A stretch of DNA of 27,386 nt from positions 1-27,386 of the forward strand of contig CAXUCT010000006.1 of NCBI GenBank assembly GCA_964249415.1, read 5' to 3'. Origin of the DNA: an uncultured Bryobacteraceae bacterium (lineage in GTDB: Bacteria > Acidobacteriota > Terriglobia > Bryobacterales > Bryobacteraceae). Shown in pieces: positions 4,463-27,386 of the stretch. Positions within the stretch are counted from its first letter, which is position 1, and every line of letters begins with the position of its first letter. The notes beneath the pieces were generated by a model, which worked only from the letters and a program-made list of their open reading frames with translations, was not told the origin of the DNA and made no database searches. Position numbers and translations under genes: made by a program.

Positions 4463-4463
4463 C

Positions 4464-8945: not shown

Positions 8946-8958
8946 TTCCTTGCAGTTA

Positions 8959-11140: not shown

Positions 11141-13123
11141 GTGAGTACCCAAATCACATCACAGCTCGCTACTGAACTGCTCCCAACGCCTCTTCCCCGG
11201 CAAGAGTCCGTCAGGCGTGATCTGGCCATTCTTCTTGTCTTAAGTGCATTGCTCTCCCTTGCGCGCTGGTGTACTCTCGAAAGCTTTTGGGGTGATTCGC
11301 CGCGCTGGATCTTCGAAGCGTATCGTGGCGCTTCGGGAGAGCTTCTGTATCGCGACTTTGCATGGCAGTATCCTCCCCTGCCGTTACTGTTGTGTAGCAG
11401 CGCCCTCCAATTGCTGGGCTCAACGTTTTGGTCGGTGCAACTGCTGCTCGATCTTGTTAGCGCGGCCGTCGTCATTTTGACATGGGACTTAGGCCGCCGG
11501 CTTCTGCCAAAGCCTCTGCCCTTACTCGCTGCCGCTGCCATGGCGTGTGCAGGTGCTTCGAACCCCAGTAACTTCGCGGTTTTGTCGATCAAGGTGTTTT
11601 ACACGTAATTCTTCGTCGGCATGATCGGCCTGCTCATCGTGTTGCGCGAGGTTGTCGATTATCTGCGGGCGGGGACCTGGGGTGCGCGCAGGCTAAGTTG
11701 GCTCGCCCTCGGAGCCGCGGTTTGTCTTCTCAGCAAGCCTGAGTACATTCTGGGCTTGGCCGGATGCTTGGCTGCTCTCGCTCTCGCCGACTTACGTGTT
11801 TGGTATCGAGACCGCACGTTCTCTTCCTGGCTCGTTCAGTACACCAAAATCTTGTTGGCATGCGTTGCTCCGTCGCTTATGGTCTACGCGGTATTCGCAT
11901 TTCTATGCGGCCCCCGAAACGTAATCGCCGGTGTAGGCGGATACGGACTCGCTGCCCTTAGCTGCCCCTGGTGGCCTACCGGACTCGGTCTGTTTGGCGC
12001 AGTGGCCGCACTCGGGTATGGAGTCATCGATGCCGCTCTCCTCTCGCTCACCCGTTTTACAGCTTTCAAGCAACGCTACGGCAGCCGGTATAACCTTCTT
12101 TGGGCCGCTACAGCCGTTGCGCTGGTAATCGCCGCGCTGTACTTACCGTTCTGCGCCGAGCTCCCCATGTTTCAGGGACACATCACGGTTCCTCGCGCGC
12201 TGACCTACTTTCTCTCTACCGGAACGGTCTTGCTCCCGGTCATGTGGTTCTCTATAGTCTTGTGTGGATGGCTGGCCGTGCGGCTGCTCAAATCTCTGAA
12301 AGCTCGCATCCGCTTTAGCACCGGCGATGCCATCCTGTTCAGCATTCTCAGTTCCGCAGTGCTGATCTCGCTCCGCGGCTTGTTCAACGGAACCATGAGT
12401 CAGCTTAGTCTTGCCAGCGTTGCTGCTTACCCGATCTGGTTCCTCATCGGTCCTTATTTATTGATCCGCGTTCTCCAGCGCGCCAAACCAACAAATCTCG
12501 AAGACCGCTTTAGCATTGCCTTTGCACCCTTCCCCGTCACAGCTGTCGTCGCGGTGTTTCTAGTCTTTCGGCTCCTTAATGTCGTAGCGGGCGAAGTGAG
12601 AAGGCCCTACGCCCGTATTGTCACTCCCGCGGGAACGGTCCGCGTAACCGACACATCCGTCAGTCCCCAAGTCTACGCTTACATTGCCGGCCACTCTTCT
12701 CCTCACGAGCCCATTCTTGATTTGGCCGGAGGCGGAGGTATCAACTTGGCAGACCGCCGGCCAAGTCCGCTCTTTTCTACCCAATTCACCGCCCTAGAGC
12801 CTCCCGCTAGATATCTACGACTCGATGAAAGCCTAATGCGTCAGCATCCCCCGCGGCTTGTCATTGCCAGTGCGGGCGCTAATTTCGGCGCCACTTACGG
12901 CATCTGCATGAACACCGGCTGTACCTTTCCTGTTTTAGTCTGGCGCTCCCACCGCCCGGCTTGTGAAGCTTCCGTAGCGTTTCCTGTGCTGGACTATGTC
13001 CGGCAAAACTATCATCCGCTCGCCCGCTTTGGCGACAAAATTATCTACTCCCGTCATGGCAGTTTAGATGAAAATCCGTTACCTAATACAACTAACCTTC
13101 TTAGCTCTGCTCACGCTCAGTAG
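11141..13123 (+). pseudogene. GT-C-like multi-TM membrane protein interrupted by an in-frame TAA at 11606-11608 (ORF track fragments 11141-11608 and 11621-13123)
   Basis: Both ORFs are in the same frame and read ...IKVFYT*FFVGMIGLL... N-terminal loop GDSPRW...GELLYRDFAWQYPP resembles GT-C lipid-linked-sugar transferases, followed by many TM segments and a C-terminal soluble domain. No SD before ATG 11621. Confidence 0.7.
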
Positions 13124-15104
13124 CGTGCTTGGTGGCGCAATTATAGATTCAGATTGGCGCTGCTATGGTAAGGACCCCGCCTTTACTCATTTCTCGAGCC
13201 TCGATCAGATCAACAAGGCGAACGCCGGCAATCTCCGGGTCGCGTGGGTTCACCACACCGGTCATGCTAATACAAGCCTGAAGACTACCATTGAGTGCAA
13301 TCCGCTGGTGGTGAATGGAACCGTCTATGTGACGTCACCTGTCTTAGAAGTGATTGCGCTCGAAGGCGCCACTGGCCGGCAAATTTGGAAGTATAACCCC
13401 TTTCCTTTTGAATACGATCTTTTTTATAACTGGCTCTTCTATCTCATCGTGCTCCTCGTTTCGGGGTCGCTCTGGCTCATGGTCCGAATGCGGAAACGAC
13501 AGAACGCCCCAGTTAGCGTCACCGTTCAGTGCGCGGCAGCCCTCTTTCTACTTGCCGGGGTCAGCCTCGATCCTCGCCACTTACTCACTCCCATGAACCA
13601 GGAGCGCCGGCAAGGGCCCAGCCGCGGGTTGAGCTACTGGGAATCCGGCTCGGACAAACGCATCTTCTTCGCCGGCGGCCATCATTTGATCGCGTTGAAC
13701 GCTCTCACAGGCAAGCCCATCCCCAGCTTTGGCGCAAACGGCAGTGTAGATCTCACGCAGGGCCTGGAGCGTAACATCGACGGCCAAATATACGCCGTCA
13801 CTACGCCTGGCGCCATCTATAAAGACCTCATCATTATCGGAGCGAAAGTAGGCGAAGGCCCGCTACCCGCCGCTCCTGGCGACGTTCGTGCTTTCGACGT
13901 GCGCACCGGAGAGCAGAAGTGGATCTTTCATACCATCCCTCATCCGGGTGAGGCCGGTTATGACACTTGGCCCGCCGATACCTGGAAACATGTCGGCGGC
14001 GCAAACCCTTGGGGCGGTATGAGTCTGGATCCCGTGCGCGGTTACGTCTTTGTGCCAACCGGTTCCGCAACGTTCGACTTCTACGGTGGTGATCGCGCCG
14101 GGAAGGACCTCTTCGCCGATTCGGTGATTGCGCTCCAAGCCGGTACCGGCAAGCTCGTCTGGTACTACCAGACAGTCCATCACAATCTGTGGGATTACGA
14201 TTTAGCGTCTCCACCGAATTTAGTGACAGTACAGCACGACGGAAAACCTGTCGACGCTGTCGTACAGCCTTCGAAAAGCGGTTTGGTCTTTGTGTTGAAT
14301 CGCGACACCGGCCAACCGTTGTTCCCCGTCGAAGAGCGCCCCGTACCGCAATCCACGCTCAATGGCGAGCAGGCGTGGGGCACCCAACCTTATCCGTTGA
14401 AACCACCGCCATTAGCGCGAACCGAGATTACAGAAAACGATTTAACTGATATCACGCCGCAAGCCCACGAGTTCGCTCTTCGTGAGTTCCGCAAAGCAGC
14501 GTCCGCTCGAATTTACGCTCCGCCCAGCACCCACCTGACGATCGTGACGCCGGGCTTCCACGGCGGAGCAAACTGGAGCGGATCTTCTGTCGATCCCCGT
14601 ACCGCGCGCCTGGTAGTCAATTCCAATGACATACCGTTCACGCTGCAAATGAGGACACCGAGGTTTTGGCAGCCATACAGATGGAGCTTTTACGGCTTTC
14701 ATCGATTCGCTGACCAGGACGGCTACCCTGCGGTTAAGCCGCCTTGGGGCAAACTGACCGAGATCAATCTCAATACCGGTGACATCGCCTGGCAGATTCC
14801 CTTGGGGGAATATCCGGAACTTGCCGCCAAGGGTATTCCAACTACTGGAACTGAGAACGCCGGCGGCTCCATCATCACCGCCGGAGGGCTCATCTTCATC
14901 GGGTCCACATTCGACGAAAAGTTCCGCGCTTTCGATGTCGATACCGGGAAACTGCTGTGGCAAACCAAGCTGGACGCAGCTGCACACGCGTCGCCCTCCA
15001 CTTACTCAATCAACGGCAAGCAGTACGTGCTAACGGCCGCTGCCGGCGGTTCCATGGTGGAGAGCCCGGCCGGTGACGAGTACGTCGCCTTCACTCTTCC
15101 CTAG
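13068..15104 (+). CDS. PQQ-dependent dehydrogenase (glucose/quinate dehydrogenase-like beta-propeller) with signal peptide and an internal hydrophobic insertion
   Basis: DWRCYGKD...HFSSLDQIN, ECNPLVVNG, GDVRAFDVRTG, GGANPWGGMSLD, HHNLWDYD, PGFHGGANWSG, PPWGKL, ENAGGSIITAGGLIFIG and repeated TG..LW propeller motifs. Confidence 0.9.
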   Translation: MKIRYLIQLTFLALLTLSSVLGGAIIDSDWRCYGKDPAFTHFSSLDQINKANAGNLRVAWVHHTGHANTSLKTTIECNPLVVNGTVYVTSPVLEVIALEGATGRQIWKYNPFPFEYDLFYNWLFYLIVLLVSGSLWLMVRMRKRQNAPVSVTVQCAAALFLLAGVSLDPRHLLTPMNQERRQGPSRGLSYWESGSDKRIFFAGGHHLIALNALTGKPIPSFGANGSVDLTQGLERNIDGQIYAVTTPGAIYKDLIIIGAKVGEGPLPAAPGDVRAFDVRTGEQKWIFHTIPHPGEAGYDTWPADTWKHVGGANPWGGMSLDPVRGYVFVPTGSATFDFYGGDRAGKDLFADSVIALQAGTGKLVWYYQTVHHNLWDYDLASPPNLVTVQHDGKPVDAVVQPSKSGLVFVLNRDTGQPLFPVEERPVPQSTLNGEQAWGTQPYPLKPPPLARTEITENDLTDITPQAHEFALREFRKAASARIYAPPSTHLTIVTPGFHGGANWSGSSVDPRTARLVVNSNDIPFTLQMRTPRFWQPYRWSFYGFHRFADQDGYPAVKPPWGKLTEINLNTGDIAWQIPLGEYPELAAKGIPTTGTENAGGSIITAGGLIFIGSTFDEKFRAFDVDTGKLLWQTKLDAAAHASPSTYSINGKQYVLTAAAGGSMVESPAGDEYVAFTLP

Positions 15105-15136
15105 CCGAAAACGCCGCCATTCCAATCCCTCCTTCC

Positions 15137-15140
15137 GGAG
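15137..15140 (+). promoter_or_regulatory. Shine-Dalgarno (GGAG) of the 533-aa gene
   Basis: GGAG 6 nt upstream of ATG 15147. Confidence 0.55.
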
Positions 15141-15146
15141 CTTTAA

Positions 15147-16748
15147 ATGAAGTTATCGAGACCAATCCTCTTCGTCTTAGCGGGTATCGTTGTAGCCTCC
15201 TGCGTCGTTCTGGTCGCCGGACATCGATATAACGTAAAAGCGGAGTTCTCAAACGACGGACTGAAATCCCTACAATCCAACGGCTTCGACTTCCTCGGGA
15301 ATGGGGGCTTTTTCATCCATGATGTCTTCCTCCGAAACCCCAGCGGAGAAACTCGTCCGGGCGCCACGGATGGCGACCATACGTTCAATGCCCAGCGTCA
15401 GGAGCTTGATCGAACTTTTCCTTGGGGGCATATCAAAGTCACTTACTCCACGTCGCACAAGCGCCTTCTCCTCAGCATTCTCACTACAAACACGTCGGAT
15501 TCGGATACGATCCAGAGTGTCTGGTATCAGCCACTCACGCTGAAGTTACCTACGAAAGCCAAAGAGTACGATGGATCCATTCCGCTGCTCGCTTACAATG
15601 TCGGCGAGGTAGCAGTCTCCAAAGTTTCGTTCGACTCGGGAGCATTGGCGGCTGTAAGCGAAGACGTGGCAAAGCCGATACTAATCGGCTTTCCTTGGGC
15701 CGACAACCGGCCGGAGAACACGATTTTTCCTTTATCCGTAAGCACCGGGCGCGTGAAGTCCTACCCGGACAGCATTCCCGCCATCAATCGTCCCATCGCT
15801 CCTGGGAGCACCGACGAATACCGCCTATCAATTCGTTTTGGCCCTGTTTCGGAGACAGAAACTGAGTTTGCTTCCGATGTCTACCAGAAGTTTGGCAAGG
15901 TTTATCCCTCAACTTTGAACTGGCCGGACCGGCGTGCCATCGGCGCTATCTTCCTCGGTTCCTCGGGGGAGACCTCCGAAAACAACCCTCGTGCCTGGTT
16001 CGACGATCACAATCTGAACATCAACACTCCTGCCGGCTGCGCGGAGTTCCGCCGGCGCATATTAGGCCTGGCCGACAGCGCCGTCTCCATCATGAAAGAC
16101 ATGCATGCCCAGGGAGCAATCACTTGGGATATTGAAGGCGAACAGTACACGCACGCGAACTACATCGGTGATCCCCGCTTAACGAATGAACTCGCGCCGG
16201 AGATGGCTACTCTCGCCGATGAATACTTCGCTCGCTTTCGTCGCGCAGGTCTCCGCGTAGGCATCTGCATTCGGCCGCAGCAACTCCACGTTTCAGCGGA
16301 TAGGAAGGACGCTACCCAGATCGCCTTAGCCGATCCTACTCCCGTGCTGATTGACAAGATCAATTACGCGAAAAAGCGCTGGGGCGCTACGATCTTCTAC
16401 ATCGATTCGAACGTCAACTCTTACGACGCGAATCCCATGGATGTAAACGTAATGCAGAAGTTGAGCGCCACCTTCCCCGATGTCCTATTCGTGCCCGAGC
16501 ACTCGAATTTGCGCTATTACGCCTACTCCGCGCCGTATCGAGAACTGCGGCAAGGCTTCGCCGGTACCACCGACTTTACTCACGATACATACCCGAAGGC
16601 CTTCACGGTCATCTACACAGCCGATGGCCTGATCGACTACTACCACAAGAGCTTGGCCAGCGCCGTCAAAGGCGGCGACAGTCTGATGTATCGCACTTGG
16701 TGGCGCGATCCTCAGAACGACAAGCTCAAGATGCTCGCCAGCCGCTAA
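15147..16748 (+). CDS. Uncharacterised exported or membrane-anchored protein, putative glycoside-hydrolase-like (paralog of 25813-27386)
   Basis: N-terminal hydrophobic segment (ILFVLAGIVVASCVVLVAG), beta-rich N-terminal half, and a C-terminal half with WDIEG, YIGDP, APEM, RPQQ, RWGATIFYIDS, VPE shared with the minus-strand paralog. The CDS is solid; the function is inference. Confidence 0.75.
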   Translation: MKLSRPILFVLAGIVVASCVVLVAGHRYNVKAEFSNDGLKSLQSNGFDFLGNGGFFIHDVFLRNPSGETRPGATDGDHTFNAQRQELDRTFPWGHIKVTYSTSHKRLLLSILTTNTSDSDTIQSVWYQPLTLKLPTKAKEYDGSIPLLAYNVGEVAVSKVSFDSGALAAVSEDVAKPILIGFPWADNRPENTIFPLSVSTGRVKSYPDSIPAINRPIAPGSTDEYRLSIRFGPVSETETEFASDVYQKFGKVYPSTLNWPDRRAIGAIFLGSSGETSENNPRAWFDDHNLNINTPAGCAEFRRRILGLADSAVSIMKDMHAQGAITWDIEGEQYTHANYIGDPRLTNELAPEMATLADEYFARFRRAGLRVGICIRPQQLHVSADRKDATQIALADPTPVLIDKINYAKKRWGATIFYIDSNVNSYDANPMDVNVMQKLSATFPDVLFVPEHSNLRYYAYSAPYRELRQGFAGTTDFTHDTYPKAFTVIYTADGLIDYYHKSLASAVKGGDSLMYRTWWRDPQNDKLKMLASR

Positions 16749-16753
16749 GATAC

Positions 16754-17326
16754 ATGGAACTCCCGGCGCCTCTCATCGTTGATCTCGACGGTACTCTTGT
16801 CTTAACCGACACGCTGCATGAAGCGTTCCTTGCTTTGCTCCGAGTCAATCCCTGGCTTGCCTTCACGGCCCTGTTCTCCATACCGCAAGGCCGCGCCAAG
16901 TTCAAGGAGCGAATTGCAGAAGTCACGCCCTTGGAACTGGCACGCCTTCCCTACAACAGCGACCTCGTGCTTTATCTGAAGTCTCAGGGCCATCGTCGCT
17001 TGATCCTTGCCACGGGCGCTCCCAGGAAGATAGCTGCCGCAGTCGCGGCCCACTTAGGCATCTTTGAGTGCGTTCTTTGTACGGAAGGCAAAATCAACTT
17101 AACCGGCGAAAGAAAGGCCGTCGCCATTGCCAAGTATCTGAACGGTGGCGGTTTCGTCTACGCGGGCAACTCGCGCGCCGATCTGCCTGTATGGGCACGA
17201 GCTAAAGCTGCTCTTGTCGTGAACGCGTCTCCGTCTCTCGCTCGTGAAGTAAACAAGCTGGGCATCAACATAGACCGGGAGTTTCCACGTAGCGTTTCTC
17301 CCTGGCGGCTTCTCTTCCGTCGGTAG
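16754..17326 (+). CDS. HAD-superfamily phosphatase resembling the N-terminal domain of HAD-UbiA fusion proteins
   Basis: IVDLDGTL (motif I), LILATGA (motif II), GERKA (motif III) and YAGNSRADLPVW (motif IV). Start reassigned from 16697 to ATG 16754. Confidence 0.85.
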   Translation: MELPAPLIVDLDGTLVLTDTLHEAFLALLRVNPWLAFTALFSIPQGRAKFKERIAEVTPLELARLPYNSDLVLYLKSQGHRRLILATGAPRKIAAAVAAHLGIFECVLCTEGKINLTGERKAVAIAKYLNGGGFVYAGNSRADLPVWARAKAALVVNASPSLAREVNKLGINIDREFPRSVSPWRLLFRR

Positions 17327-17377
17327 CCTGGCTTAAACCCTCCACCCCGTCATTCGCGCAATAACGCGGTCTCTATC

Positions 17378-17381
17378 AGGA
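17378..17381 (+). promoter_or_regulatory. Shine-Dalgarno-like AGGA of the UbiA-family gene
   Basis: AGGA 8 nt upstream of ATG 17390. Confidence 0.45.
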
Positions 17382-17389
17382 TTTATTGC

Positions 17390-18391
17390 ATGTCAGCACC
17401 TGCTGTTCAACCTATTACAAAAGTTAACCGTCCCTCTCTCCGTGGACATCTCGCCATCGCGCGCATGGATCATTGGGTCAAGAATGTTTTCGTGTTGCCC
17501 GGTATTCTTATTCCACTTGTTGTCGACCCGGGACACTGGCCGCCTCGCTTAGCGCTCCGAATCATCATCGGATTGGCGTCCGTCTGTCTTATTACCTCAA
17601 GCAACTACGTCATCAACGAGGTTCTCGATGCGCCGTCGGATCGTTTTCACCCTCTCAAGTCATCCCGCCCGGTGCCTTCGGGAAAAGTCAGCATCCCGCT
17701 TGCTTACGTGCAATGGCTCGCCTTGATGGTCGTGGGACTCGCGCTCGCCGCCACCATATCCGTGCCCTTCCTGCTTACAATGGCTGCCCTTTGGGTTATG
17801 GGTTGCGCTTACAACATCGCGCCCATACGGACGAAAGATGTGCCCTATCTGGACGTCCTATCCGAATCCGTCAACAATCCGCTACGCATGTTAGCTGGCT
17901 GGTTTATTACTGGCACCTCCCTAATCCCTCCCGCCTCTCTCCTGTTCAGTTACTGGATGATTGGCTGTTACTTCATGGCTTTGAAACGCTATGCCGAATA
18001 CCGCGACCTTGACAACGTGAAGGTCGCCGCGCTCTACCGTAAATCGTTTGCATTTTATACGGAAGAACGCCTCCTCGCTTCCGTTCTTTTTTACAGTTCC
18101 GCGGCCATGCTCTTCTTCGGCGCCTTTATCATGCGGTACCGGTTGGAACTCCTCCTCGCCATCCCGTTAATCGCATTGGTTATGGCCTTCTATTTGGACC
18201 TGTCGTTCAAGCCCAATAGTGCGGTCCAACGGCCTGAAGGTTTATATCGCGAGCGCGGGCTGGTGGCCTCCGTCGTAGCATGCGCCATCTTCATCTTGGT
18301 CCTGTTCATGGTGGACATCCCCTGGGTGCGATCCATCTTCGCCCCCACCATCCCCACTGAGAGCGTTGTAAATACTCTGCCCGCGAGGTAG
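17390..18391 (+). CDS. UbiA-family prenyltransferase, polyprenyl-phosphate phosphoribosyltransferase (DPPR synthase, Rv3806c/NoeC-like)
   Basis: ARMDHWVKNVFV, SSNYVINEVLDAPSDRFHPLKSSRPVPSGKV, ALKRYAE and multiple TM helices. These match the DPPR-synthase subgroup rather than quinone UbiA/MenA. Confidence 0.85.
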   Translation: MSAPAVQPITKVNRPSLRGHLAIARMDHWVKNVFVLPGILIPLVVDPGHWPPRLALRIIIGLASVCLITSSNYVINEVLDAPSDRFHPLKSSRPVPSGKVSIPLAYVQWLALMVVGLALAATISVPFLLTMAALWVMGCAYNIAPIRTKDVPYLDVLSESVNNPLRMLAGWFITGTSLIPPASLLFSYWMIGCYFMALKRYAEYRDLDNVKVAALYRKSFAFYTEERLLASVLFYSSAAMLFFGAFIMRYRLELLLAIPLIALVMAFYLDLSFKPNSAVQRPEGLYRERGLVASVVACAIFILVLFMVDIPWVRSIFAPTIPTESVVNTLPAR

Positions 18392-18421
18392 CATGTTTCA
18401 ACACAACTGCGCCTTTCACAC

Positions 18422-20056
18422 ATGAACTCCGACACCGTCGCGCCATTTCACCAGGCCACGCCCGTTGCCGCCCTGCCCACTCTCGGCCTCACCCGCTCGC
18501 TACGTTTTGTGCCTTCGCTGCCCATTGCAATGGTGCTCATGGCCTTGCTCGCGCTGGGCTGTGGCTTAGCGAAAGGCGTTCTGTGGGGAGTGCCTCCGCC
18601 CGTTGCCCAGGATGAGTCCGGCTACCTTTTAAATGCCGACACGTTTGCCTCCGGTCGAATCACGAATCCAACACACCCCATGTGGCGGCACTTTGAATCT
18701 ATGTTTGTGATCCAACAGCCGACCTATACCAGCAAATACCCGCCCGGGCAGGGACTCGTGCTCGCATTGGGCCAAAAGGTGTTCGGCGAACCGATTGTTG
18801 GTGTGTGGCTGAGTACCGCTCTCGCCAGCGCGGCAATGTGTTGGATGTTTTGGCGATGGCTTACGCCTTCTTGGGCTCTCCTTGCTTCGCTCATCGCTGT
18901 CGCCCATCTCGTCGTCAACTACTGGAACTTCACCTATTGGGGAGGCTCCGTAGCGGCTCTGGGTGGCGCACTCGTCTTCGGAGGCTTGCGGCGTTTCCCG
19001 GCGGGTTTCCGTGCCATCGACGGCTTACTCGTCGGTCTCGGAATCGTCATCTTCGCTAATACCAGGCCCTTTGAAGGCTTGGTGACCTGCGCGGCGGCAG
19101 CGCTGGCTTTCGCTGCCTGGATGATTCGAGATCACATCCGCCTTCCAGTTGCCATCTTGCTCCGGATGTTTGTGCCGCTGGCTGCTGTCCTGGCGCTCGC
19201 CGCATTCTGGATCGGCTTCTATAACTACCGTACGACTGGTAGCGTGCTGACGTTTGCGCAAGGTGTTCACTCGGAGGCGTACTACCCGGTTCCGGTTTTG
19301 GTTTTCCAGCACCCTGGGCCGGCGCCTACGTTCGATCACGAGTACATGAGAGTTCAATACCTGAGGGACATTCAAGAGTTTCAAAAGCAACGGTCCATTC
19401 CCGGCTTCGTTGCCGCGGCCCGGACGAAGTTCCTGGCCATTTGGGGCTTCTACGTTGGCATCGGCCTTACACTGCCCTTGTTTGCGTTGCCGCTTCTTCT
19501 TAAGAATCCCTGGATGCGTTTTGCACTCTCCGTCTGCGCGGTGAGTCTGGCCGTGATGTTTTTTGAGACTTGGCTCTTTCCGCACTATGCTGCTCCTATT
19601 GCGCCGCTTTTATTCCTGATTCTGACCGAATGCCTGATAGCTCTCTCGCCTTGGCAGTGGCGCGGTCTACCGCTCGGCAGAGGACTCGTTGCTTTAGTCG
19701 TGCTCTTCCACATTGCTCTTGTCGGGTTCGCGATATTTCACCGTCCGCAATACATCGCGACCCGCGAGCCTTGGGCCCTCGCCCGGCAGCAAATCCTTCA
19801 GCGCCTTGGACATGACGGACACAATCATTTGGTGATCGTTCGCTACGCCGCCAATCACACGCCCGATGCGGAGTGGGTCTATAACAAAGCAGATCTCGAC
19901 AAGACACCGGTGGTCTGGGCCCACGAAATGTCAGGCGAGGATGAACGTAAAATCCTCAACTACTATTCGAATCGCTACGTTTGGCTGCTCGAAGCGGATA
20001 CCAAACCGCCCCGCCTTTCCCCTCTTCGCGCTGCCCTGCCTGTTTCCGTAAACTAA
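18422..20056 (+). CDS. GT-C-like membrane glycosyltransferase (paralog of 23048-24754)
   Basis: First loop [25 protein letters not shown] with acidic DE pair, KYPPGQG, NTRPFEG, many TM segments and C-terminal VIVRY...EWVYNKADLD..VVWA domain. Confidence 0.72.
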   Translation: MNSDTVAPFHQATPVAALPTLGLTRSLRFVPSLPIAMVLMALLALGCGLAKGVLWGVPPPVAQDESGYLLNADTFASGRITNPTHPMWRHFESMFVIQQPTYTSKYPPGQGLVLALGQKVFGEPIVGVWLSTALASAAMCWMFWRWLTPSWALLASLIAVAHLVVNYWNFTYWGGSVAALGGALVFGGLRRFPAGFRAIDGLLVGLGIVIFANTRPFEGLVTCAAAALAFAAWMIRDHIRLPVAILLRMFVPLAAVLALAAFWIGFYNYRTTGSVLTFAQGVHSEAYYPVPVLVFQHPGPAPTFDHEYMRVQYLRDIQEFQKQRSIPGFVAAARTKFLAIWGFYVGIGLTLPLFALPLLLKNPWMRFALSVCAVSLAVMFFETWLFPHYAAPIAPLLFLILTECLIALSPWQWRGLPLGRGLVALVVLFHIALVGFAIFHRPQYIATREPWALARQQILQRLGHDGHNHLVIVRYAANHTPDAEWVYNKADLDKTPVVWAHEMSGEDERKILNYYSNRYVWLLEADTKPPRLSPLRAALPVSVN

Positions 20057-20063
20057 CGCCGCC

Positions 20064-21284
20064 GTGGCCACTGCACTTCTCACCAATAGCCGGGGAATTT
20101 CATCCCGAGTCCGGCAGATTGTCAACATCCGCATACCGGAGCTGGACGGTCTGCGCGGATGCGCCATCCTTCTCGTTCTCCTGTTCCACTGCGGTACCTT
20201 CAATGCCACCAACTGGCAGGCGAGGCTGTTGCGGCTGGGTACTGGAGTGAGTCTCGGCTGGTCGGGAGTGGATCTTTTCTTCGTCCTTTCAGGCTTCCTC
20301 ATCACCGGAATCCTGCTTGAGACCAAGGGTTGCTTCAACTATTTCTCCTCTTTCTACGCGCGCCGCGTACTGCGCATCTTTCCGTTGTACATGGCCTTCG
20401 TGCTGATCTTCTTTTGGATCGCTCTCCCGATTGCTCATGCGTTCGGCCATGGCATGGAGATAAAGTACTCCGCCCAGATCTGGTATTGGCTCTATGTATC
20501 GAACTGGCGGGTCGGCCTCGGACTTACTCACGAAGATTATTTGAACCACTTCTGGTCGCTGGCTATCGAGGAGCAGTTCTACCTCATTTGGCCGTTGGTC
20601 GTTTCCCTTATTTCTGAGCGGCTACTGCTGAGGTTGTGCGGCGTCATTATCGTAGGCTGTCTCGCGCTGCGCACTTCGCTGGTCCACCTGCTTCCCGCCG
20701 CGGCCATCAATTTTCTCACCCCTTTCCGCATCGATACGCTCGCGTTTGGAGCGGTCGTTTGTCTCCTCTTCAGGAACGCTGACTGGTTAGCGCGCTATCG
20801 ACGGCAGAACACTCGCGTCCTCTGGGCAGCGAGCTTAGGGCTGATTATTCTGGTGGTCTTCTGCGGCGCGGTCAGTGTCGAGCATATCGCCGTCCGGACT
20901 ATCGGGTACACGCTATTCGCGGCCTTTTACGCCTCCTTAGTCTTCGGAGCCGCCGCGAGTTCCGGTGCAGCCGGTTCGTTCGTCACTGTCCTGCGCAGCC
21001 GTTTTCTAAGGACTTTCGGAAAATATAGTTACGGCATCTATGTCATACACATGCCGGTGTACATCATCGTTCGTCATCTTCTTAACCGGCTTAGCGAGCA
21101 CTGGCATCGCGACTACAACGCGCCTTTTGCCTTTCTGTGCGTAGTGGCATGCTCGCTTATCTCGTATGGACTCGCGCGCGTGTCCTGGAAATTGCTCGAA
21201 CAGCCGTTCCTTCGCATGAAGGAACGTTTTCCCTATTGCCTGGATTCCAACATTGAGCCAAACACTAACAGATCATCAGGTTGA
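20064..21284 (+). CDS. Acyltransferase-3 family (OafA/OatA-like) membrane O-acyltransferase
   Basis: RIPELDGLRG, GVDLFFVLSGFLIT, FYARRVLRIFPLY, HFWSLAIEEQFY, FGKYSYGIYVIH and LEQPF. GTG start. Confidence 0.93.
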   Translation: MATALLTNSRGISSRVRQIVNIRIPELDGLRGCAILLVLLFHCGTFNATNWQARLLRLGTGVSLGWSGVDLFFVLSGFLITGILLETKGCFNYFSSFYARRVLRIFPLYMAFVLIFFWIALPIAHAFGHGMEIKYSAQIWYWLYVSNWRVGLGLTHEDYLNHFWSLAIEEQFYLIWPLVVSLISERLLLRLCGVIIVGCLALRTSLVHLLPAAAINFLTPFRIDTLAFGAVVCLLFRNADWLARYRRQNTRVLWAASLGLIILVVFCGAVSVEHIAVRTIGYTLFAAFYASLVFGAAASSGAAGSFVTVLRSRFLRTFGKYSYGIYVIHMPVYIIVRHLLNRLSEHWHRDYNAPFAFLCVVACSLISYGLARVSWKLLEQPFLRMKERFPYCLDSNIEPNTNRSSG

Positions 21285-21297
21285 CGCGGCAAAGGCA

Positions 21298-23013
21298 ATG
21301 CGGAACCCGCTTGCTTCACGCCATCGCGTAGGTCTCCTGTGCGCCTTTCTGACGGCCCTGTGCATCCTCGCCACCTACCCGGTGCTCGAAATGGGGACGA
21401 ACGACGATTGGTCCTACGTTCGCACTGCGTTCGACATGGCGCGGACCGGCCACCTGCTTTACAACGGCTGGGCCACCGCCATGCTCGGCTGGCAAATTTA
21501 TTGGGGCGCTCTTTTCGTCAAGCTATTTGGCTTCTCGTTTCTCGCTGTCCGTCTTTCCACGTTGCCCTTGGCCGCAGCTTCGGGTTATCTCCTGTACCAG
21601 GTTTTTATCTGGTTTGGAGTCAACCCCCGCAATGCTGCGCTGGGCACGTTGACCGTTGTCGTCTCGCCTGTCTTCCTGCCGGTGGCGGCAAGCTTTATGA
21701 CGGACGTGCCCGGGTTCCTGCTTCTTCTCGCCTCGCTGTATGCCTGCCTCAAGGCCCTTGATGCCACGAAGAGTCAGACTGCTTTTGCCTGGCTCGCGAT
21801 AGCTACCGTTGTCAGCGTCGGCGGCGGAACCGCCCGGCAAACCGTCTGGTTGGGCGCCTTGGTCATTGTTCCTTCCACGGCTTGGCTGCTGCGCCGCTCG
21901 GCGGGCCTGCTGGCCGGTACCGCTGTTCTTTGGGTGGGTACTCTGGTGACGATCCTTGCGGTCATGCACTGGTATGCCCAGCAGCCCTACGCTATACCCG
22001 AGAAGTTCTTCGACCAAAGCCTCAAGTTGCGACTTCTGTCCACTCTCGCGCAGCAGACGCGGAACTCACTTCTCACGGTGCTGCTGGTCCTCTTTCCCGT
22101 GTTAACGGCTTACCTAACCGGCTTCCGAACGGTTTCAAAGAAGCTCGCCTTGGCAGTGTTCGCGGCTGCGATGTTGCTGATCGCCCTTCGAACGCACGGC
22201 GCACATTCACTGGTGCTGGCGCCCTGGCTGCCCAATATGATTTCCGAATACGGAGTCTTAGGAAACGGTGAGTTGGAAAACCTCGGAACAAAGCCCATCG
22301 TGCTTGGATTTTTCGTAAGACTCATTATCACCTTGGCCGTCTTCTTGGCCAGTTCCGTCTTTGTGGCTTCCTTATTTAACCGCGCTTCTTGGCTTGAGCC
22401 TGCAAAAAGGCTCGCGCCTTCCTGGTTTGTTACAGCCGTTCTCCTTGGCCCTCTCACGCTCGCCTACCTCCTCTTACTTACGCCGAGGGCTGCTTTTGCC
22501 ATCAATATTGACCGTTACCTCATTCCGGTATTCGCGCTGCTCTCCATCCCCATCCTGCGTTTCTATCAAGAGCGAGTGCAGGAGCGCGCGCCCGCCTACA
22601 GCTTTGCTGTACTGGCGCTCTTTACCCTCTACGGCGTAGCATCAACCCACGACTACTTCGCTACCAATCGCGCCCGCTTGACCGCGGCGGAAAACGTCAG
22701 AAGCAGCGGCGTCCCCCGCACCGCTATTCAGGGCGGTTGGGAATACGATGCCTGGACGCAACTGCAACTGGCCGGTTACATCAACGATTGGCGCATCGAA
22801 TATCCGCCGGATGCCTTTCACGAAACAAGCTTGCTGAAACTCCCGCAGCCATGCCGCTTCTGGTGGAGCAAATACACGCCTGTTATCACCCCTCGCTACT
22901 TTGTCGTGTTCTCTCCCCAACCATGCCTCGCGCCGTCCCGCTTTGCGCCTGTCCAGTACCGCACTTGGTTGCCGCCTTTTCAACGGGAGATCGATGTTCA
23001 GCAGCTGCCTTAG
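21298..23013 (+). CDS. GT-C (ArnT/PMT, GT39/GT83-like) membrane glycosyltransferase (alternative TTG start at 21253)
   Basis: MGTNDDWSY acidic loop after TM1, GHLLYNGW, SFMTDVP, about 12 TM segments by eye and a C-terminal soluble domain (IQGGWEYDAW). Confidence 0.78.
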   Translation: MRNPLASRHRVGLLCAFLTALCILATYPVLEMGTNDDWSYVRTAFDMARTGHLLYNGWATAMLGWQIYWGALFVKLFGFSFLAVRLSTLPLAAASGYLLYQVFIWFGVNPRNAALGTLTVVVSPVFLPVAASFMTDVPGFLLLLASLYACLKALDATKSQTAFAWLAIATVVSVGGGTARQTVWLGALVIVPSTAWLLRRSAGLLAGTAVLWVGTLVTILAVMHWYAQQPYAIPEKFFDQSLKLRLLSTLAQQTRNSLLTVLLVLFPVLTAYLTGFRTVSKKLALAVFAAAMLLIALRTHGAHSLVLAPWLPNMISEYGVLGNGELENLGTKPIVLGFFVRLIITLAVFLASSVFVASLFNRASWLEPAKRLAPSWFVTAVLLGPLTLAYLLLLTPRAAFAINIDRYLIPVFALLSIPILRFYQERVQERAPAYSFAVLALFTLYGVASTHDYFATNRARLTAAENVRSSGVPRTAIQGGWEYDAWTQLQLAGYINDWRIEYPPDAFHETSLLKLPQPCRFWWSKYTPVITPRYFVVFSPQPCLAPSRFAPVQYRTWLPPFQREIDVQQLP

Positions 23014-23047
23014 CTGCTCCTGAACTGGTTCATCCGGTTCCCACCCA

Positions 23048-24754
23048 ATGAAGATATTTTCTTCTAACGCCGATCTTCTGTTGCTGGAAGCTGCGGTGTA
23101 CTTCGCTGCCTCCATTGTCGCGATAATGTTCCCGCGCGTACGCCCGGCTTGGCTCCAATTGGCAAGACACGCATTTAAGCGCCTCGCCCAGCGGCGTGCA
23201 CTCGCCGTAGGCTTCGTGGTGGCATTTGTACTTGCCCTGCGGGGAGCACTGCTTCCTCTTTTGCCGCCGCCTGTGCCGGGTGTACATGACGAATTCAGCT
23301 ATCTCTTGGCCGCTGATACGTTCGCGTCGGGACGACTGACAAATCCGGCGCATCCGCTCTGGCAGTATTTCGAGAGCTTTCATATCATCCAGCACCCAAC
23401 ATACGCCTCCATGTATCCCCCGGCGCAAGGGTTGATGTTGGCGTTCGGGAAGGTAATCGGCGGAAGTCCCTGGATCGGCGTGTACCTCAGCGCGGCACTT
23501 ATGTGTGGCGCTATTTGCTGGATGCTCCAAGCTTGGGTACCGCCGCAATGGGCGCTCATGGGCGGCTTGATTGCCGCACTGCGATGGGGCATCTACAGTT
23601 ACTGGATGGAAAGCTATTGGGGCGGCGCGGTAGCCGCATTGGCCGGAGCGCTGGCCGTCGGTGCCCTTCTGCGCATCTTCAAGGAGCGGAGCGTTTGGCC
23701 GGCGGCGACATTGGGCATGGCATTGATCCTCCTCGCAAACAGCCGTCCCTATGAGGGCCTCCTCTTTACTGTTCCCGTCCTCGGCGCGCTTTGTCTCTGG
23801 ATGATCGGTAAGCATTCACCGAAAGCGCCGGTCTTATTAACGCGCGTAGTGCTCCCGCTAGTGGTTGTATCGGCGCTGGGAACGGCGGCAACCGGCTATT
23901 ACTTCTGGCGCGTGACCGGCAATCCGATGCGCATGCCCTATCAGGTAGACGAAGACACATACGCTGTGACCAACCCGCTTCTTTGGCAACCGCTGCGCCC
24001 GATTCCCGAATACCACAATGCGGTCATGCGCAGTTATTACCCCGTCCGTGAGATGGCCGCTTACCGGCAGGCGCATTCCTGGAATGGCTGGTTGCTGGAG
24101 ACATGGCGCAAGATCACTACTTTGGTCTTCTTCTACTTCTGGCCTGCCGTCTTGCCGGTGCTATTGGCAACACCTTTTTTATGGAGGAACCGCCGCGCTC
24201 GGTTCGCCCTCGTCGTTGCCGGCATTATGCTCCTCGGTCTGACACTTGAAATCTGGCCGATGATGCTGCATTACCACGCGCCGATTACCGGATTGATTGT
24301 CCTGCTCATCATCCAAACAATGCGTTACTGGCGGCATGTAAAGTGGCGCGGCCGGCCGGTGGGCGCCGCCATCTCCCGAACGATACCGCTATTCTGTGCG
24401 TCGCTCCTCCTTGTTCGGCTGGGCGCCGCCGTGCTTCACGTTCCCGTTCCAGACCACGGCATGACACCCTGGTTCTCGGTTGCATCCGGAAATCTGCAAC
24501 GCGCCAGAATCCTGCATTATCTGGAAGGCCAACCCGGCCGGCAACTGGTTGTGGTTCGATACCAACCGGATCACGATGCTGGTGACGAATGGGTGTATAA
24601 CGAAGCGGATATCGATAGTGCAAAAGTAGTTTGGGCCCGCGACGCCGGATTGAGAAATGATGCCCCGCTTCTCCGTTATTTCAATAGTCGCCATGTGTGG
24701 CTTCTGGAGGCCGATAAGACGCCGCCGCATCTGAGCCGCGGTCTTTGCCCATAG
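23048..24754 (+). CDS. GT-C-like membrane glycosyltransferase (paralog of 18422-20056)
   Basis: [40 protein letters not shown] and C-terminal VVVRY...[14 protein letters not shown]. Confidence 0.72.
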
Positions 24755-24820
24755 CCATCCCCGCCGGAGTCCCTAACGCCTACGAGCCATCCGATAATTA
24801 CAGATTGCGAGCGACCCCAT

Positions 24821-25816
24821 ATGATTTCTACCGTAATTCCTATCTTCAACGAAGAAGAGAACCTGCCCGAATTGCGACGGCGGGTGACGGCGGCGCTTGA
24901 TTACACAGGTAGCGGCTGGGAATTGATTCTTGTGAATGATGGCAGCAGAGACCGCTCCGAGCAGATCATTCGAAGCTACGCACGCGAAGACCCGCGCATC
25001 AAGCTGGTCTCGTTCTCGCGCAACTTCGGGCACCAGCCTGCCGTCACCGCCGGTATCCATCACGCCGGCGGCGGTTGCGTTGTGCTGATGGACGGCGACA
25101 TGCAAGATCCTCCGGAAATCATTCCGGAGATGGTAGCGAAATGGCGCGAGGGTTATCAAATCGTGCGCGCGGAACGCCATAGCCGCGCAGAAGGCGGCCT
25201 GCGCGGCCTCGGTTTCCGGCTCTTCTATCCTCTGCTCCGCAAAGTCACTGACCTGCCGGACGGCGGCGAGGCGGGCATCTTCGGCCTGATGGATCGCGTT
25301 GTAGTGGACGAGTTCAACAAGCTTCCGGAGCGCAACCGCTTTATTCCGGGGTTGCGCTCCTGGCTTGGGTATTCGCAAGCAAGCGTGTTCTATGACCGCC
25401 AGGACCGCGCCGCCGGACAGCCCAAGCAAACCCTGAGCCGCCTGATTAAATACGCGCTCGACGCCATGATCAGTTTCATCAACAATCCGCTGCGACTGGC
25501 TACCTGGATGGGAGTGATGATTTCGGCTTTCGCCTTCGTCATTGTGATGATCTATCTAATCGCGTACTTTGTGCAAACCAATCCGCCTCCTCGCGGATTC
25601 ACTTCGATTCTGATTGCGGTGCTCTTTCTAGGCGGAGTCCAACTCGTGTGCCTCGGCATCCTGGGCGAGTACATCGGCCGCATTTACGAAGAAACGAAGC
25701 AGCGCCCGCTTTACATAGTTCGAGACCTGGTGGGTTTCGGTTCCTCCGAAGCGGAGCGGCAAACTTCGCGTGCAACGGCCGCGGGCGTGAACGGCGCAGC
25801 CGGTTACGCCCGCTAG
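24821..25816 (+). CDS. GT2 polyprenol-phosphate glycosyltransferase (GtrB/ArnC/DPM1-like), catalytic motifs intact
   Basis: VIPIFNEEEN, VNDGSRDRS, FSRNFGHQPA, MDGDMQDPPE, ERNRFIPGLRSWLGY, two TM helices and GEYIGRIYEETKQRPLY. Confidence 0.92.
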   Translation: MISTVIPIFNEEENLPELRRRVTAALDYTGSGWELILVNDGSRDRSEQIIRSYAREDPRIKLVSFSRNFGHQPAVTAGIHHAGGGCVVLMDGDMQDPPEIIPEMVAKWREGYQIVRAERHSRAEGGLRGLGFRLFYPLLRKVTDLPDGGEAGIFGLMDRVVVDEFNKLPERNRFIPGLRSWLGYSQASVFYDRQDRAAGQPKQTLSRLIKYALDAMISFINNPLRLATWMGVMISAFAFVIVMIYLIAYFVQTNPPPRGFTSILIAVLFLGGVQLVCLGILGEYIGRIYEETKQRPLYIVRDLVGFGSSEAERQTSRATAAGVNGAAGYAR

Positions 25817-27386
25817 TGATTCACCTCTCGGACGGCCGCGAAGCGCTTAACGGGCAGAAAGGGCGGCGCCTGGATCGGGTCGATGGCGACCGGCGGAGGA
25901 GGCTGTGAGGTTGCAAAGCGCGACTGCTGATACAGTTGCAGAACTTGGCTGTTCAGCGGCTCATCATCAAACCACGCGCGGAATGAAAGAATGTCGCCAT
26001 TATTGACCGCATGAGTGAATTCGCTCCACTGATTCGGATCGTTGGGGTTATTCGTTAGGTCATGATTCGGGGCGTCGCCCACGTAAGTAACGCTGAAGGC
26101 GTTCGGCCATATCGTCTTTGCATCGGGCGGCGTGTGAAGCGGCTTATACGGTGCCCAGAAGCTCGCTAACGGGGCCGTGTAAGCATAGTCTTTCGGCCAG
26201 ATGTTTTCGGGAATAATCAACACGTTGGGCAGCGCTTGTTGCACCTGTTGAAAAGTTGACGGCGCGGTGGAGTTGTCGGGCCTGTCGTCGGAATCCACAT
26301 AGAACAGCGTGCAACCCCAGCGGTTGTAAGCGTACTGAATCTTGCTGATCATGACGCCCGCTTCGTTTTGGATAGGGACTGAATCCTGATTGGGCGGCGA
26401 CACGGAGAAATTCAGCTGCTGTGGACGAATGGTCATGCCGCAGCGCAACCCCGCACTCGTGAAGCGCGCGAAGAAGGCGTCCGCCACTCCGTTCATCTCG
26501 GGAGACATGTTAGGTAACTGCGAAGGATCTCCAACATAACTGGTATTCGGCTGCGGATACTGTTGCCCTTCGAGATCCCAGACGATGGCCCCCTGCGCGT
26601 TCATGTTCTTGAGAATCTGGACGGAGTTGTCGGCATAAGACAACACAGCCTGCTGGAAGGCGCTGAGACCCGCGGCGTTTTGGATATTGATGTTCTGGGC
26701 AACAGTGTAATTGCGCGGATTGGGATTCGACGGAGAGAGGGCCGACGAAGTGGGATTCGTCATGAATAGCTCACCGATAGGGCGGCGATCAGTCCAATTG
26801 AGTGTTTGCGGCCAGGTTTGGCCGAAGGTGGTTAATACATCGCCTGCAATGGCGTGATAATCGGTGCCCGATGGCGCGAAACGCAAGGAGAAAGAGTACA
26901 CGTCTGTTTGGCCCGGCGCAACCGGTCGGCTGACAGGGACTGAGGTCGCGAGAAAGCCTTCGGCGCCCTCGTTGTTCGTCGATACTTCCATCTCGTAGTG
27001 ATTGGCCGCGCCAGATGGGCTGAAGCCCAAATACAGCGGTTTAGCATCGCTATCGGCGAGCACCAACATGCCCGAGCCCCAGTCCGCTGGGATCAGAACC
27101 GGAGCGTCCAGGTTGTTATGGAATTGAGGGTAGTTGGCTGCTCCAAATTGCGATGGCAAGCTGGGGAACTGAAGACCGAAGGGAAAGATATCGATTCCAC
27201 TCAGTGTTTGGTCGCTGGTGTTGGTCACGCTCAAGGTGACGGCGAGGTTGCTGCCGCCAGCCGGCGTTGTGAACTGGCACGTCACGTGGCCCCAACTCCA
27301 GGACCAGGTAAGCGTATCGGTCCCCGGATTCCAGACAGCAGTATTGCCGATACCGCCCCAACCCCCGCCCGTGCCGAGAGTGTACC
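25813..27386 (-). CDS. Uncharacterised glycoside-hydrolase-like protein, paralog of 15147-16748 (5'-partial; frame is open to the window edge)
   Basis: Upstream of the ORF-track GTG (27285) the frame continues without a stop (YTLGTGGGWGGIGNTAVWNPGTDTLTWSWSWGH). Shares LNWxDRRxIG, QGAIxWDxEG, YxGDP, PEM, RPQQL, RWGxTxFYxDS and GDxLxxRxW with 15147-16748. Confidence 0.8.
   Translation of the reverse strand, partial: YTLGTGGGWGGIGNTAVWNPGTDTLTWSWSWGHVTCQFTTPAGGSNLAVTLSVTNTSDQTLSGIDIFPFGLQFPSLPSQFGAANYPQFHNNLDAPVLIPADWGSGMLVLADSDAKPLYLGFSPSGAANHYEMEVSTNNEGAEGFLATSVPVSRPVAPGQTDVYSFSLRFAPSGTDYHAIAGDVLTTFGQTWPQTLNWTDRRPIGELFMTNPTSSALSPSNPNPRNYTVAQNINIQNAAGLSAFQQAVLSYADNSVQILKNMNAQGAIVWDLEGQQYPQPNTSYVGDPSQLPNMSPEMNGVADAFFARFTSAGLRCGMTIRPQQLNFSVSPPNQDSVPIQNEAGVMISKIQYAYNRWGCTLFYVDSDDRPDNSTAPSTFQQVQQALPNVLIIPENIWPKDYAYTAPLASFWAPYKPLHTPPDAKTIWPNAFSVTYVGDAPNHDLTNNPNDPNQWSEFTHAVNNGDILSFRAWFDDEPLNSQVLQLYQQSRFATSQPPPPVAIDPIQAPPFLPVKRFAAVREVNH

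Follow-up and report, generated by a model that had tools for sequence, protein, structure and literature searches.

A variable block of candidate polymer-decoration genes at the distal end of a Wzx/Wzy polysaccharide locus from an uncultured Terriglobia bacterium

The Gtr system is made up of the flippase GtrA, the polyprenyl-phosphate glucosyltransferase GtrB, and a GtrC-type glycosyltransferase of the GT-C fold, while the Arn system has ArnC, ArnT, and ArnEF. The donor synthase RgtE of Rhizobium feeds the GT-Cs RgtA to RgtD, and mycobacteria use a decaprenyl-phosphate phosphoribose (DPPR) synthase of the UbiA family, DprE1/E2, the Aft/Emb GT-Cs, and Ppm1. The pentofuranose system of Citrobacter youngae O1/O2 has three components, namely ORF15 (PRP-PPPRS), ORF14 (a small flippase), and ORF12 (a GT-C of family GT136) (Kelly et al. 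2024, PMC11127046). The sequence comparison was applied here to a block of GT-C genes and candidate sugar-donor genes in the 27,386-nt contig CAXUCT010000006.1 (C6) of an uncultured Bryobacteraceae bacterium (assembly GCA_964249415.1); the window, i.e. the whole stretch of DNA analyzed, was this entire 27-kb contig of a 4.3-Mb Terriglobia metagenome-assembled genome (523 contigs; 79.6% complete). Of the Wza/Wzc/Wzx/Wzy polysaccharide locus in this genome, the contig spanned the distal two thirds.

The locus was a new combination or variant of known decoration systems and not a new kind of system. An initial annotation of the window had proposed an undescribed multi-arm system for periplasmic glycan tailoring, and 'undescribed' was too strong a word: the arm composed of a HAD phosphatase, a UbiA enzyme, and a GT-C corresponded to the system of PMC11127046, Gtr-type decoration and acyltransferase-3 decoration were classic, and multi-GT-C arrays were present elsewhere. 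All genes listed in that annotation were located on the plus strand at or near the positions it gave, and the tight, co-oriented packing it described behind a Wzy/WecA backbone was borne out: 20 co-oriented genes filled the plus strand with overlaps or intergenic gaps of ≤100 nt, and a single convergent gene (25813–27386, −) closed the contig. The GC content of the window (0.567–0.578, against 0.566 for the genome) gave no compositional sign of recent transfer.

The related loci came from Terriglobia/Acidobacteriaceae metagenome-assembled genomes, and the contig of the relative with 72% identity was traced gene by gene through exact-protein look-ups. Directly upstream of the part shared with the window, this relative had two additional GT4 genes together with wza, wzc, and wzx, while unrelated genes (Ppx/GppA and others) lay downstream of its last gene. 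Within the source genome, contig C123 carried Wza/Wzc/Wzx genes with 77–83% identity to those of the relative, and contig C516 carried the counterparts of its two additional GT4 genes. Because Wza/Wzc/Wzx were found upstream in the relative and on C123, together with the GT4 genes on C516, the locus represents a complete Wzx/Wzy-dependent export system split by assembly; the inspection of the flanks for wza, wzc, and wzx that had been recommended in the initial annotation was thus answered by the relatives and by C123.

The first candidate donor route consisted of a gene for a HAD phosphatase resembling phosphoribose phosphatases (16697–17326, +) and a gene for a UbiA-family enzyme resembling polyprenyl-phosphate phosphoribosyltransferases (17390–18391, +); in NF006088, a model of the fused HAD-UbiA protein, the former matched the N-terminal half (model positions 9–196, E = 1.1e-50) and the latter the C-terminal half. 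The HAD protein contained DLDGT, i.e. motif I with the catalytic Asp, and it was encoded by a separate gene and not as a fused domain. In the NCBIfam ranking for UbiA, the HAD-UbiA model and DPPR synthases were on top, all under the equivalog cut-offs; its best PDB match was the decaprenyl-phosphate phosphoribosyltransferase Rv3806c (8J8J, E = 6e-12), with which the stretch NExxDxxxDR.HP.K..RP was aligned (NEVLDAPSDR against NDVRDVEADR). Judged by these matches, the pair is the PRP-PPPRS type divided over two genes instead of fused; the HAD plus DPPR-synthase-like pair of the initial annotation was therefore upheld as the two halves of NF006088, and its pentofuranose arm agreed with the polyprenyl-phospho-pentofuranose type indicated by the HAD and UbiA motifs. 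Enzymes of this type have been shown experimentally to form undecaprenyl-phospho-ribofuranose from phosphoribosyl pyrophosphate (PRPP), which a GT-C then uses to add side chains in the periplasm (Kelly et al. 2024, PMC11127046).

Our locus and the Citrobacter youngae system shared (i) a HAD phosphoribose-phosphatase and a UbiA phosphoribosyltransferase with a GT-C gene immediately downstream, (ii) a location inside a surface-polysaccharide locus with a WecA-like primer, and (iii) both catalytic motifs, but they displayed four differences: HAD and UbiA were separate genes here; there was neither a small SMR/ArnE-like flippase gene nor room for one; the adjacent GT-C came from a large unnamed family whose members were usually away from UbiA; and no epimerase of the ORF13 type or the DprE1/E2 type lay beside the pair, while a short-chain dehydrogenase/reductase (SDR) was present in the backbone and a DAO-family flavoenzyme and a pyrroloquinoline quinone (PQQ)-type protein were present nearby. 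The search for a DprE1/DprE2 pair next to UbiA found none: the sole flavoenzyme belonged to the DAO family and was not of the FAD_binding_4 type, and no DprE2-like SDR was found, the sole SDR being the extended, nucleotide-sugar-type enzyme encoded in the backbone.

The second candidate donor route was represented by GT2b (24821–25816, +), a canonical polyprenyl-phosphate glycosyltransferase of the GtrB/ArnC type, which gave full-length matches to GtrB 5EKP (E = 1.4e-78) and ArnC (E = 1e-52), contained the motifs NEE, NDG, and DGD (DxD) plus two C-terminal transmembrane (TM) helices, and adjoined the GT-C4 gene (see below). It appeared to be the only credible GT2 donor synthase in the block: of the two GtrB-like GT2 donor synthases put forward initially, GT2b stood, while GT2a (see below) lacked all the acidic nucleotide/metal motifs. 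Compared to the Gtr and Arn systems, the locus had in common a full-length GtrB/ArnC homolog with DxD next to a GT-C gene and a GT-C2 fold closest to ArnT, but it had no GtrA or ArnE/F, it placed several GT-Cs beside one canonical synthase, and it contained a second GtrB-like gene without DxD that was coupled to a flavoenzyme.

Four genes had been initially annotated as GT-Cs. GT-C2 (18422–20056, +) belonged to a large unnamed family with >1600 homologs, every one of them annotated as hypothetical; it had no Pfam match and no PDB match by sequence, and PDB sequence and profile searches with the GT-C families likewise gave no match. An AlphaFold2 model was built on a 35-sequence alignment (mean pLDDT 89.5) and searched with Foldseek, giving significant matches to ArnT, ALG9/ALG12, PglB/AglB/STT3, Pmt4, and AftA/AftD/Emb, together with Swiss-Prot matches to RgtB/C/D and ArnT; the best 39 PDB matches were all GT-C or related, and transporters were matched only at probability ≤0.1. 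The GT-C fold of GT-C2 was confirmed by this predicted model, and it was the fold model alone that settled the assignment. D64 and E65, just after TM1, were invariant in the GT-C2 family, and two further members were found in the same genome (contigs C157 and C214). GT-C4 (23048–24754, +) had 38% identity to GT-C2 across 484 residues and retained the acidic motif, and it can be taken as a GT-C through this paralogy.

GT-C1 (11141–13123, +; about 11 hydrophobic segments) and GT-C3 (21298–23013, +; 21298 being the true start) were PMT_2-like membrane glycosyltransferases assigned at the family level: (i) the own Pfam PMT_2 match of GT-C1 was sub-threshold (E = 6e-4), PMT_2 was matched by 11 of the 33 family members as the sole Pfam family, and D52 and D72 were invariant; and (ii) the own PMT_2 match of GT-C3 was also sub-threshold (E = 1.7e-4), PMT_2 and PMT were matched by 23 and 7 of the 32 family members, respectively, and a DD pair (D36 and D37) after TM1 was invariant. 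A further GT-C3 copy with about 46–51% identity was present on contig C48. A protein-atlas feature search placed all three GT-C families beside PMT_2 clusters, and profile–profile comparisons among the three were not significant, though the acidic motif after TM1 lined up. A non-GT-C fold such as a transporter, named in the initial annotation as the outcome that would count against it, was not obtained for GT-C2 or GT-C4 and, from the family matches, is unlikely for GT-C1 and GT-C3. The four-gene assignment thus held by fold for GT-C2 and by paralogy for GT-C4, while for GT-C1 and GT-C3 it was limited to family-level PMT_2 matches, GT-C1 being moreover broken in this assembly (see below).

Compared to the Rgt system and mycobacterial arabinan/lipoarabinomannan (LAM) synthesis, the locus likewise combined several GT-Cs that would be fed by lipid-monophosphate sugars, one of them PRPP-derived, and RgtB/C/D, AftA, AftD, and Emb were among the fold matches. 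It differed from the mycobacterial system in having no DprE1/DprE2 and no Rv3807c-type phosphatase, and from both in that its genes were clustered, rare, and accessory and that its context was a Wzx/Wzy exopolysaccharide locus, whereas the acceptors in those systems are lipid A/core or galactan/mannan.

From the GT4 genes up to and including GT-C3, the order of genes was unchanged in three lineages (76–84%, 72%, and 61% identity), while a fourth lineage (49% identity) had a different distal block: it kept the backbone and WecA–DAO–(truncated GT2a)–GT-C1, followed by FkbH-like, MBOAT, and methyltransferase genes instead. This was the result of the comparison of gene neighborhoods across relatives that had been suggested at the outset. 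The ratio of nonsynonymous to synonymous substitution rates (dN/dS) was 0.04–0.16 for all compared genes except the replaced GT-C4 slot, and the compared genes were under purifying selection. The slot between GT-C3 and GT2b was occupied by the GT-C2-like GT-C4 in the window, by one extra GT-C3-like gene in the closest relative, and by two GT-C3-like genes, one of them on the other strand, in the 72% relative. The extra GT-C3 paralogs (52–57% identity) were located at L001:14493–16322 (−), L001:16454–18295, and L102:6374–8143. A 613-aa gene of the 72% relative was considered as a GT-C4 ortholog and rejected, being a GT-C3 paralog. Because the GT-C4 slot was replaced in close relatives, the four GT-Cs were not a fixed set. 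As a separate observation, the minus-strand paralog (L001:14493–16322) contained a short tandem repeat of the pentapeptide EFRST.

The cluster was rare among related genomes: a GT-C1 relative was present in 2 of the 301 genomes of the order, the source genome being one of them, and a search of 24 genomes from the genus gave no orthologous UbiA. The broad GT-C2 family was represented by 593 loci in species genomes, and because it normally sits elsewhere, the position of GT-C2 next to UbiA was not a family trait. In most Terriglobia genomes (L004 to L083; e.g. L075:11506–12735 and L005:8222–9511), a housekeeping GT-C2 member was found between a phosphofructokinase gene and a gene for a GT87-family GT-C, forming a conserved GT-C pair. 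A larger multi-GT-C array was observed in a Thermoflexales (Chloroflexota) contig (L100:1–19582), where YfhO, four PMT_2-type, GT87-like, and GT-C1-like genes stood in a row, interspersed with three GT2 and two methyltransferase genes.

The backbone genes occupied the proximal part of the window. The first GT4 gene (3–728, +; Pfam Glycos_transf_1, E = 1.6e-33) was cut at its 5′ end by the contig end, and its ortholog in the relative encoded 425 aa and came after two GT4 genes and the genes for Wzx, Wzc, and Wza. It was followed by a candidate Wzy-like repeat-unit polymerase (721–2049, +), a multi-pass membrane protein with at least about seven hydrophobic segments, which matched the oligosaccharide repeat unit polymerase model TIGR04370 weakly and under the cut-off (E = 4.9e-7). 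Genes for two further GT4s (2050–3294 and 3248–4462, +), a WcaF-like hexapeptide acetyltransferase (4347–5069, +), and a WcaI-like GT4 (5086–6330, +) were assigned from Pfam/NCBIfam matches. They were followed by (i) an extended SDR sugar epimerase/reductase (6375–7403, +; Pfam Epimerase, E = 1e-41), whose top NCBIfam match was GDP-L-fucose synthase-like and under the cut-off, and (ii) a polyprenyl-phosphate sugar-1-phosphate transferase of the WecA/MraY family, i.e. the candidate primer enzyme (7503–8945, +; PF00953, E = 1.9e-31), for which TIGR02380 (ECA_wecA) was also matched under the cut-off (E = 1.5e-26).

Further candidate modifiers named in the initial annotation, namely an acyltransferase-3, a PQQ dehydrogenase (see below), and an exported glycoside-hydrolase (GH)-like protein, were recovered. 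The acyltransferase-3 gene (20064–21284, +; PF01757, E = 1e-27) encoded a membrane O-acyltransferase without a fused SGNH domain. The exported GH-like protein (15147–16748, +; 533 aa) was modeled by AlphaFold2 (pLDDT 92.6) as an N-terminal beta-sandwich plus a TIM barrel, and Foldseek matched GH129, GH36, GH31, and GH101 with E-values from 2e-15 upward and a TM-score of about 0.5. Its family had >1200 cluster representatives, no Pfam model, and invariant D and E residues, and many of its homologs also contained Big, PA14, LamG, or pectate-lyase-like domains. The convergent gene that closed the contig (25813–27386, −; N-terminus cut by the contig end) encoded a second GH-like protein, a paralog of the first (34% identity, E = 3e-78); its ortholog in the relative was 588 aa, and further copies with 76% and 31% identity were present in the same genome on contigs C317 and C193, respectively. 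An acyltransferase-3 and exported glycosidase-like proteins inside a polysaccharide locus resembled the arrangement of Oac/OafA-type acyltransferases and of the PslG/BcsZ glycosidases, but the fold here was GH129/GH36/GH31-like and not GH39- or GH8-like as in PslG/BcsZ-type enzymes, and the family was without a Pfam model.

Taking the gene identities, the one modeled GT-C fold, the synteny, and the purifying selection together, we consider it probable that the block decorates the locus's own Wzx/Wzy polysaccharide at the periplasmic face with lipid-monophosphate sugars and O-acyl groups, and periplasmic decoration after polymerization would be the most economical reading. The donor sugars, the acceptor, the pairing of donors with GT-Cs, the location of action, and the order of steps could then be as follows. 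A repeat unit would be built on undecaprenyl diphosphate in the cytoplasm by the WecA-like primer enzyme, the GT4s, the hexapeptide acetyltransferase, and the SDR enzyme; after flipping and polymerization, the polymer or the lipid-linked repeat would be decorated in the periplasm by several GT-Cs taking single sugars from polyprenyl-monophosphate donors. At least two donors would be involved: (i) a hexose or similar sugar loaded by GT2b and (ii) ribofuranose or an epimer of it, loaded by UbiA from PRPP, with the 5-phosphate removed by the HAD phosphatase. The acyltransferase-3 would add O-acyl groups, the two glycosidase-like proteins may trim or release the polymer, and the distal end, where GT-C genes are exchanged, would act as a variable region of the serotype type.

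Several points weigh against this reading. As the initial annotation had observed, no lipid-sugar flippase gene (GtrA or SMR/ArnEF-like) was encoded in the locus; no small four-TM flippase gene was found among the genes of the window, where gaps of ≤100 nt left no room for one, or among those of the relatives' loci, and GtrA was not found in the 79.6%-complete genome. GT-C2 and GT-C4 were paralogs, yet adjacency would give them different donors. Of the GT-Cs, only GT-C2 had a fold model, while GT-C1 and GT-C3 were assigned by family-level PMT_2 matches, and the reading frame of GT-C1 was broken by a TAA in this assembly alone. In none of the 56 full GT-C2-family loci did another cluster gene lie within 10 kb, and the broad GT-C2 family was usually placed between the phosphofructokinase gene and a GT87 gene without cluster partners. 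The DAO/GT2a pair and the hairpin-bearing quinoprotein were left without an explained role. The acceptor was argued from linkage to polysaccharide genes only, and proteins or lipopolysaccharide (LPS) could equally be the acceptor. The decoration of a polymer outside the cytoplasm, as first proposed, thus stood in so far as conserved, selected enzymes of lipid-linked sugars were placed on a Wzx/Wzy locus, while its acceptor was drawn from linkage.

The interruption of GT-C1 raised the question whether the system is partly decayed in this genome, GT-C1 being a pseudogene and the locus an accessory island heading to loss, which we regard as unlikely though by no means negligible. GT-C1 was composed of two open reading frames in the same frame (11141–11608 and 11621–13123) with the TAA (11606–11608) between them, while its orthologs with 76%, 71%, and 61% identity were intact (641–661 aa). 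In a DNA alignment, about 25 nt around the stop (window 11590–11625) were locally rearranged relative to these three intact orthologs, with an apparent 3-nt gain, a 3-nt loss, and substitutions; this difference from three relatives and the rarity of the cluster among related genomes would fit decay, but it was the one lesion in 27 kb, and the genome was a fragmented bin of 523 contigs. Because the dN/dS of GT-C1 against its closest ortholog (0.13) resembled that of neighboring genes, the lesion would be either a recent event or an assembly error.

If the acceptor were not the polysaccharide, the GT-C block would glycosylate other periplasmic acceptors, namely secreted or membrane proteins (PMT-like O-glycosylation) or the lipid A/LPS core (as with ArnT and RgtA to RgtD), and we hold this to be rather improbable. 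Among named folds, GT-C2 came nearest to ArnT and to RgtB/C/D, the galacturonosyltransferases that act on core/lipid A in Rhizobium, the GT-C1 and GT-C3 families matched the protein-mannosyltransferase models PMT_2 and PMT, and the broad GT-C2 family had its housekeeping neighborhood unrelated to polysaccharide loci; but the block was contiguous and co-oriented with polysaccharide genes (gaps ≤100 nt), it stayed joined to them in three lineages, and other polymer modifiers occupied the same position in the fourth. Its rare accessory genes (as judged from the GT-C1 ortholog in 2/301 genomes) were also unlike core LPS functions.

Between the WecA-like gene and GT-C1 lay a gene for a DAO-family FAD oxidoreductase (8950–10113, +; PF01266, E = 2e-24; no close solved structure; dN/dS 0.08), which had a 17-nt overlap with the gene for GT2a (10097–11119, +). 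GT2a was a GtrB-like GT2 without DxD: it matched GtrB 5EKE over its full length (E = 1e-26) and retained the scaffold and the two C-terminal TM helices, but NEE, NDG, and DxD of GtrB were replaced by PPD, DNG, and D-P-T, respectively. These altered motifs were common to all four orthologs, with an identical state down to 73% identity, and few genes were better conserved than GT2a (91% identity to the closest ortholog; dN/dS 0.064). The DAO–GT2a pairing (window 8950–11119) was kept in four lineages, and the two genes always overlapped, both being under strong purifying selection; in the 49% lineage (L099; DAO/GT2a region L099:7720–9866), the GT2a homolog (226 aa) kept the juxtamembrane and TM part, and its GT-A domain was missing the N-terminal half. 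To judge from its motifs, GT2a is a conserved protein but doubtful as a nucleotide-sugar-dependent donor synthase.

The PQQ-type eight-bladed propeller dehydrogenase (13068–15104, +; PF01011, E = 9e-188), whose PDB matches were quinoprotein alcohol dehydrogenases, was arranged as a signal peptide, about 85 propeller residues, a hydrophobic–RxRxR–hydrophobic insertion in the first blade region (about residues 113–170; window 13404–13580), and the remaining propeller. The insertion was kept as a feature in four orthologs, its sequence drifting, and would tether the periplasmic quinoprotein to the membrane as a hairpin. A five-helix N-terminal anchor of the type in membrane glucose dehydrogenase (mGDH) was considered for the hydrophobic segments and rejected, since a signal peptide came first, followed by a propeller interrupted by the hairpin. 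The WDYD stretch of the protein was aligned with that of quinoprotein alcohol dehydrogenases and presumably holds the catalytic Asp. PqqE was above the cut-off in 6 of the 26 related genomes and was not found in the source genome (79.6% complete).

The DAO enzyme, GT2a, and the PQQ propeller would most likely act on a sugar that is bound to a lipid or to the polymer, by oxidation or otherwise, and oxidizing or presenting a lipid-linked sugar is one possibility. A stronger version, in which DAO, the translationally coupled GT2a relic, and the hairpin-bearing quinoprotein constitute a so far undescribed route for lipid-linked sugars, is speculative and seems to us quite improbable; GT2a would bind, present, or flip a polyprenyl-phosphate sugar in place of a flippase, and DAO and/or the quinoprotein would oxidize it as a non-orthologous counterpart of DprE1/DprE2, giving an epimerized or keto/uronic donor for GT-C1. 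Least likely of all is the assembly of a separate periplasmic glycan, with GT-Cs polymerizing lipid-monophosphate sugars on a primer as for mycobacterial arabinan instead of adding single side-chain residues. It would fit the four to five GT-Cs and two or three donor routes, an inventory like that of arabinogalactan/LAM synthesis, the fold matches to AftA, AftD, and Emb, and a most conserved sub-block WecA–DAO–GT2a–GT-C1 that was kept where the rest was replaced (so that GT-C1 could be a core enzyme rather than a decorating one). Against it stand the lack of DprE1/DprE2 homologs, a complete Wzx/Wzy/Wza/Wzc machinery with at least five GT4s that already accounts for a polymer, and a GT-C set that varies among close relatives, as would suit the diversification of side chains more than an assembly line with fixed parts.

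Acidobacteria count among the most abundant bacteria of soils, where their exopolysaccharides influence aggregation and the tolerance of desiccation; to our knowledge, almost nothing is known about how these exopolysaccharides are built. The main interest of the locus lies in its conserved redox and relic genes without explanation and in its unnamed families, and it offers testable material: (i) three GT-C families that are unnamed or weakly matched, (ii) a new glycosidase-like family with >1200 cluster representatives, (iii) a GtrB relative that is catalytically degenerate yet strongly constrained by purifying selection, and (iv) a membrane-hairpin quinoprotein in a biosynthetic locus. Being without a flippase for lipid-monophosphate sugars, it adds one more case to the unsolved problem of how these donors are moved across the membrane. 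Known schemes, i.e. Gtr-type decoration, a PRPP-derived pentofuranose, and acyltransferase-3 acylation, are stacked here on one Wzx/Wzy locus, and its variable end, which swaps GT-C genes between close relatives, resembles O-antigen serotype diversification.

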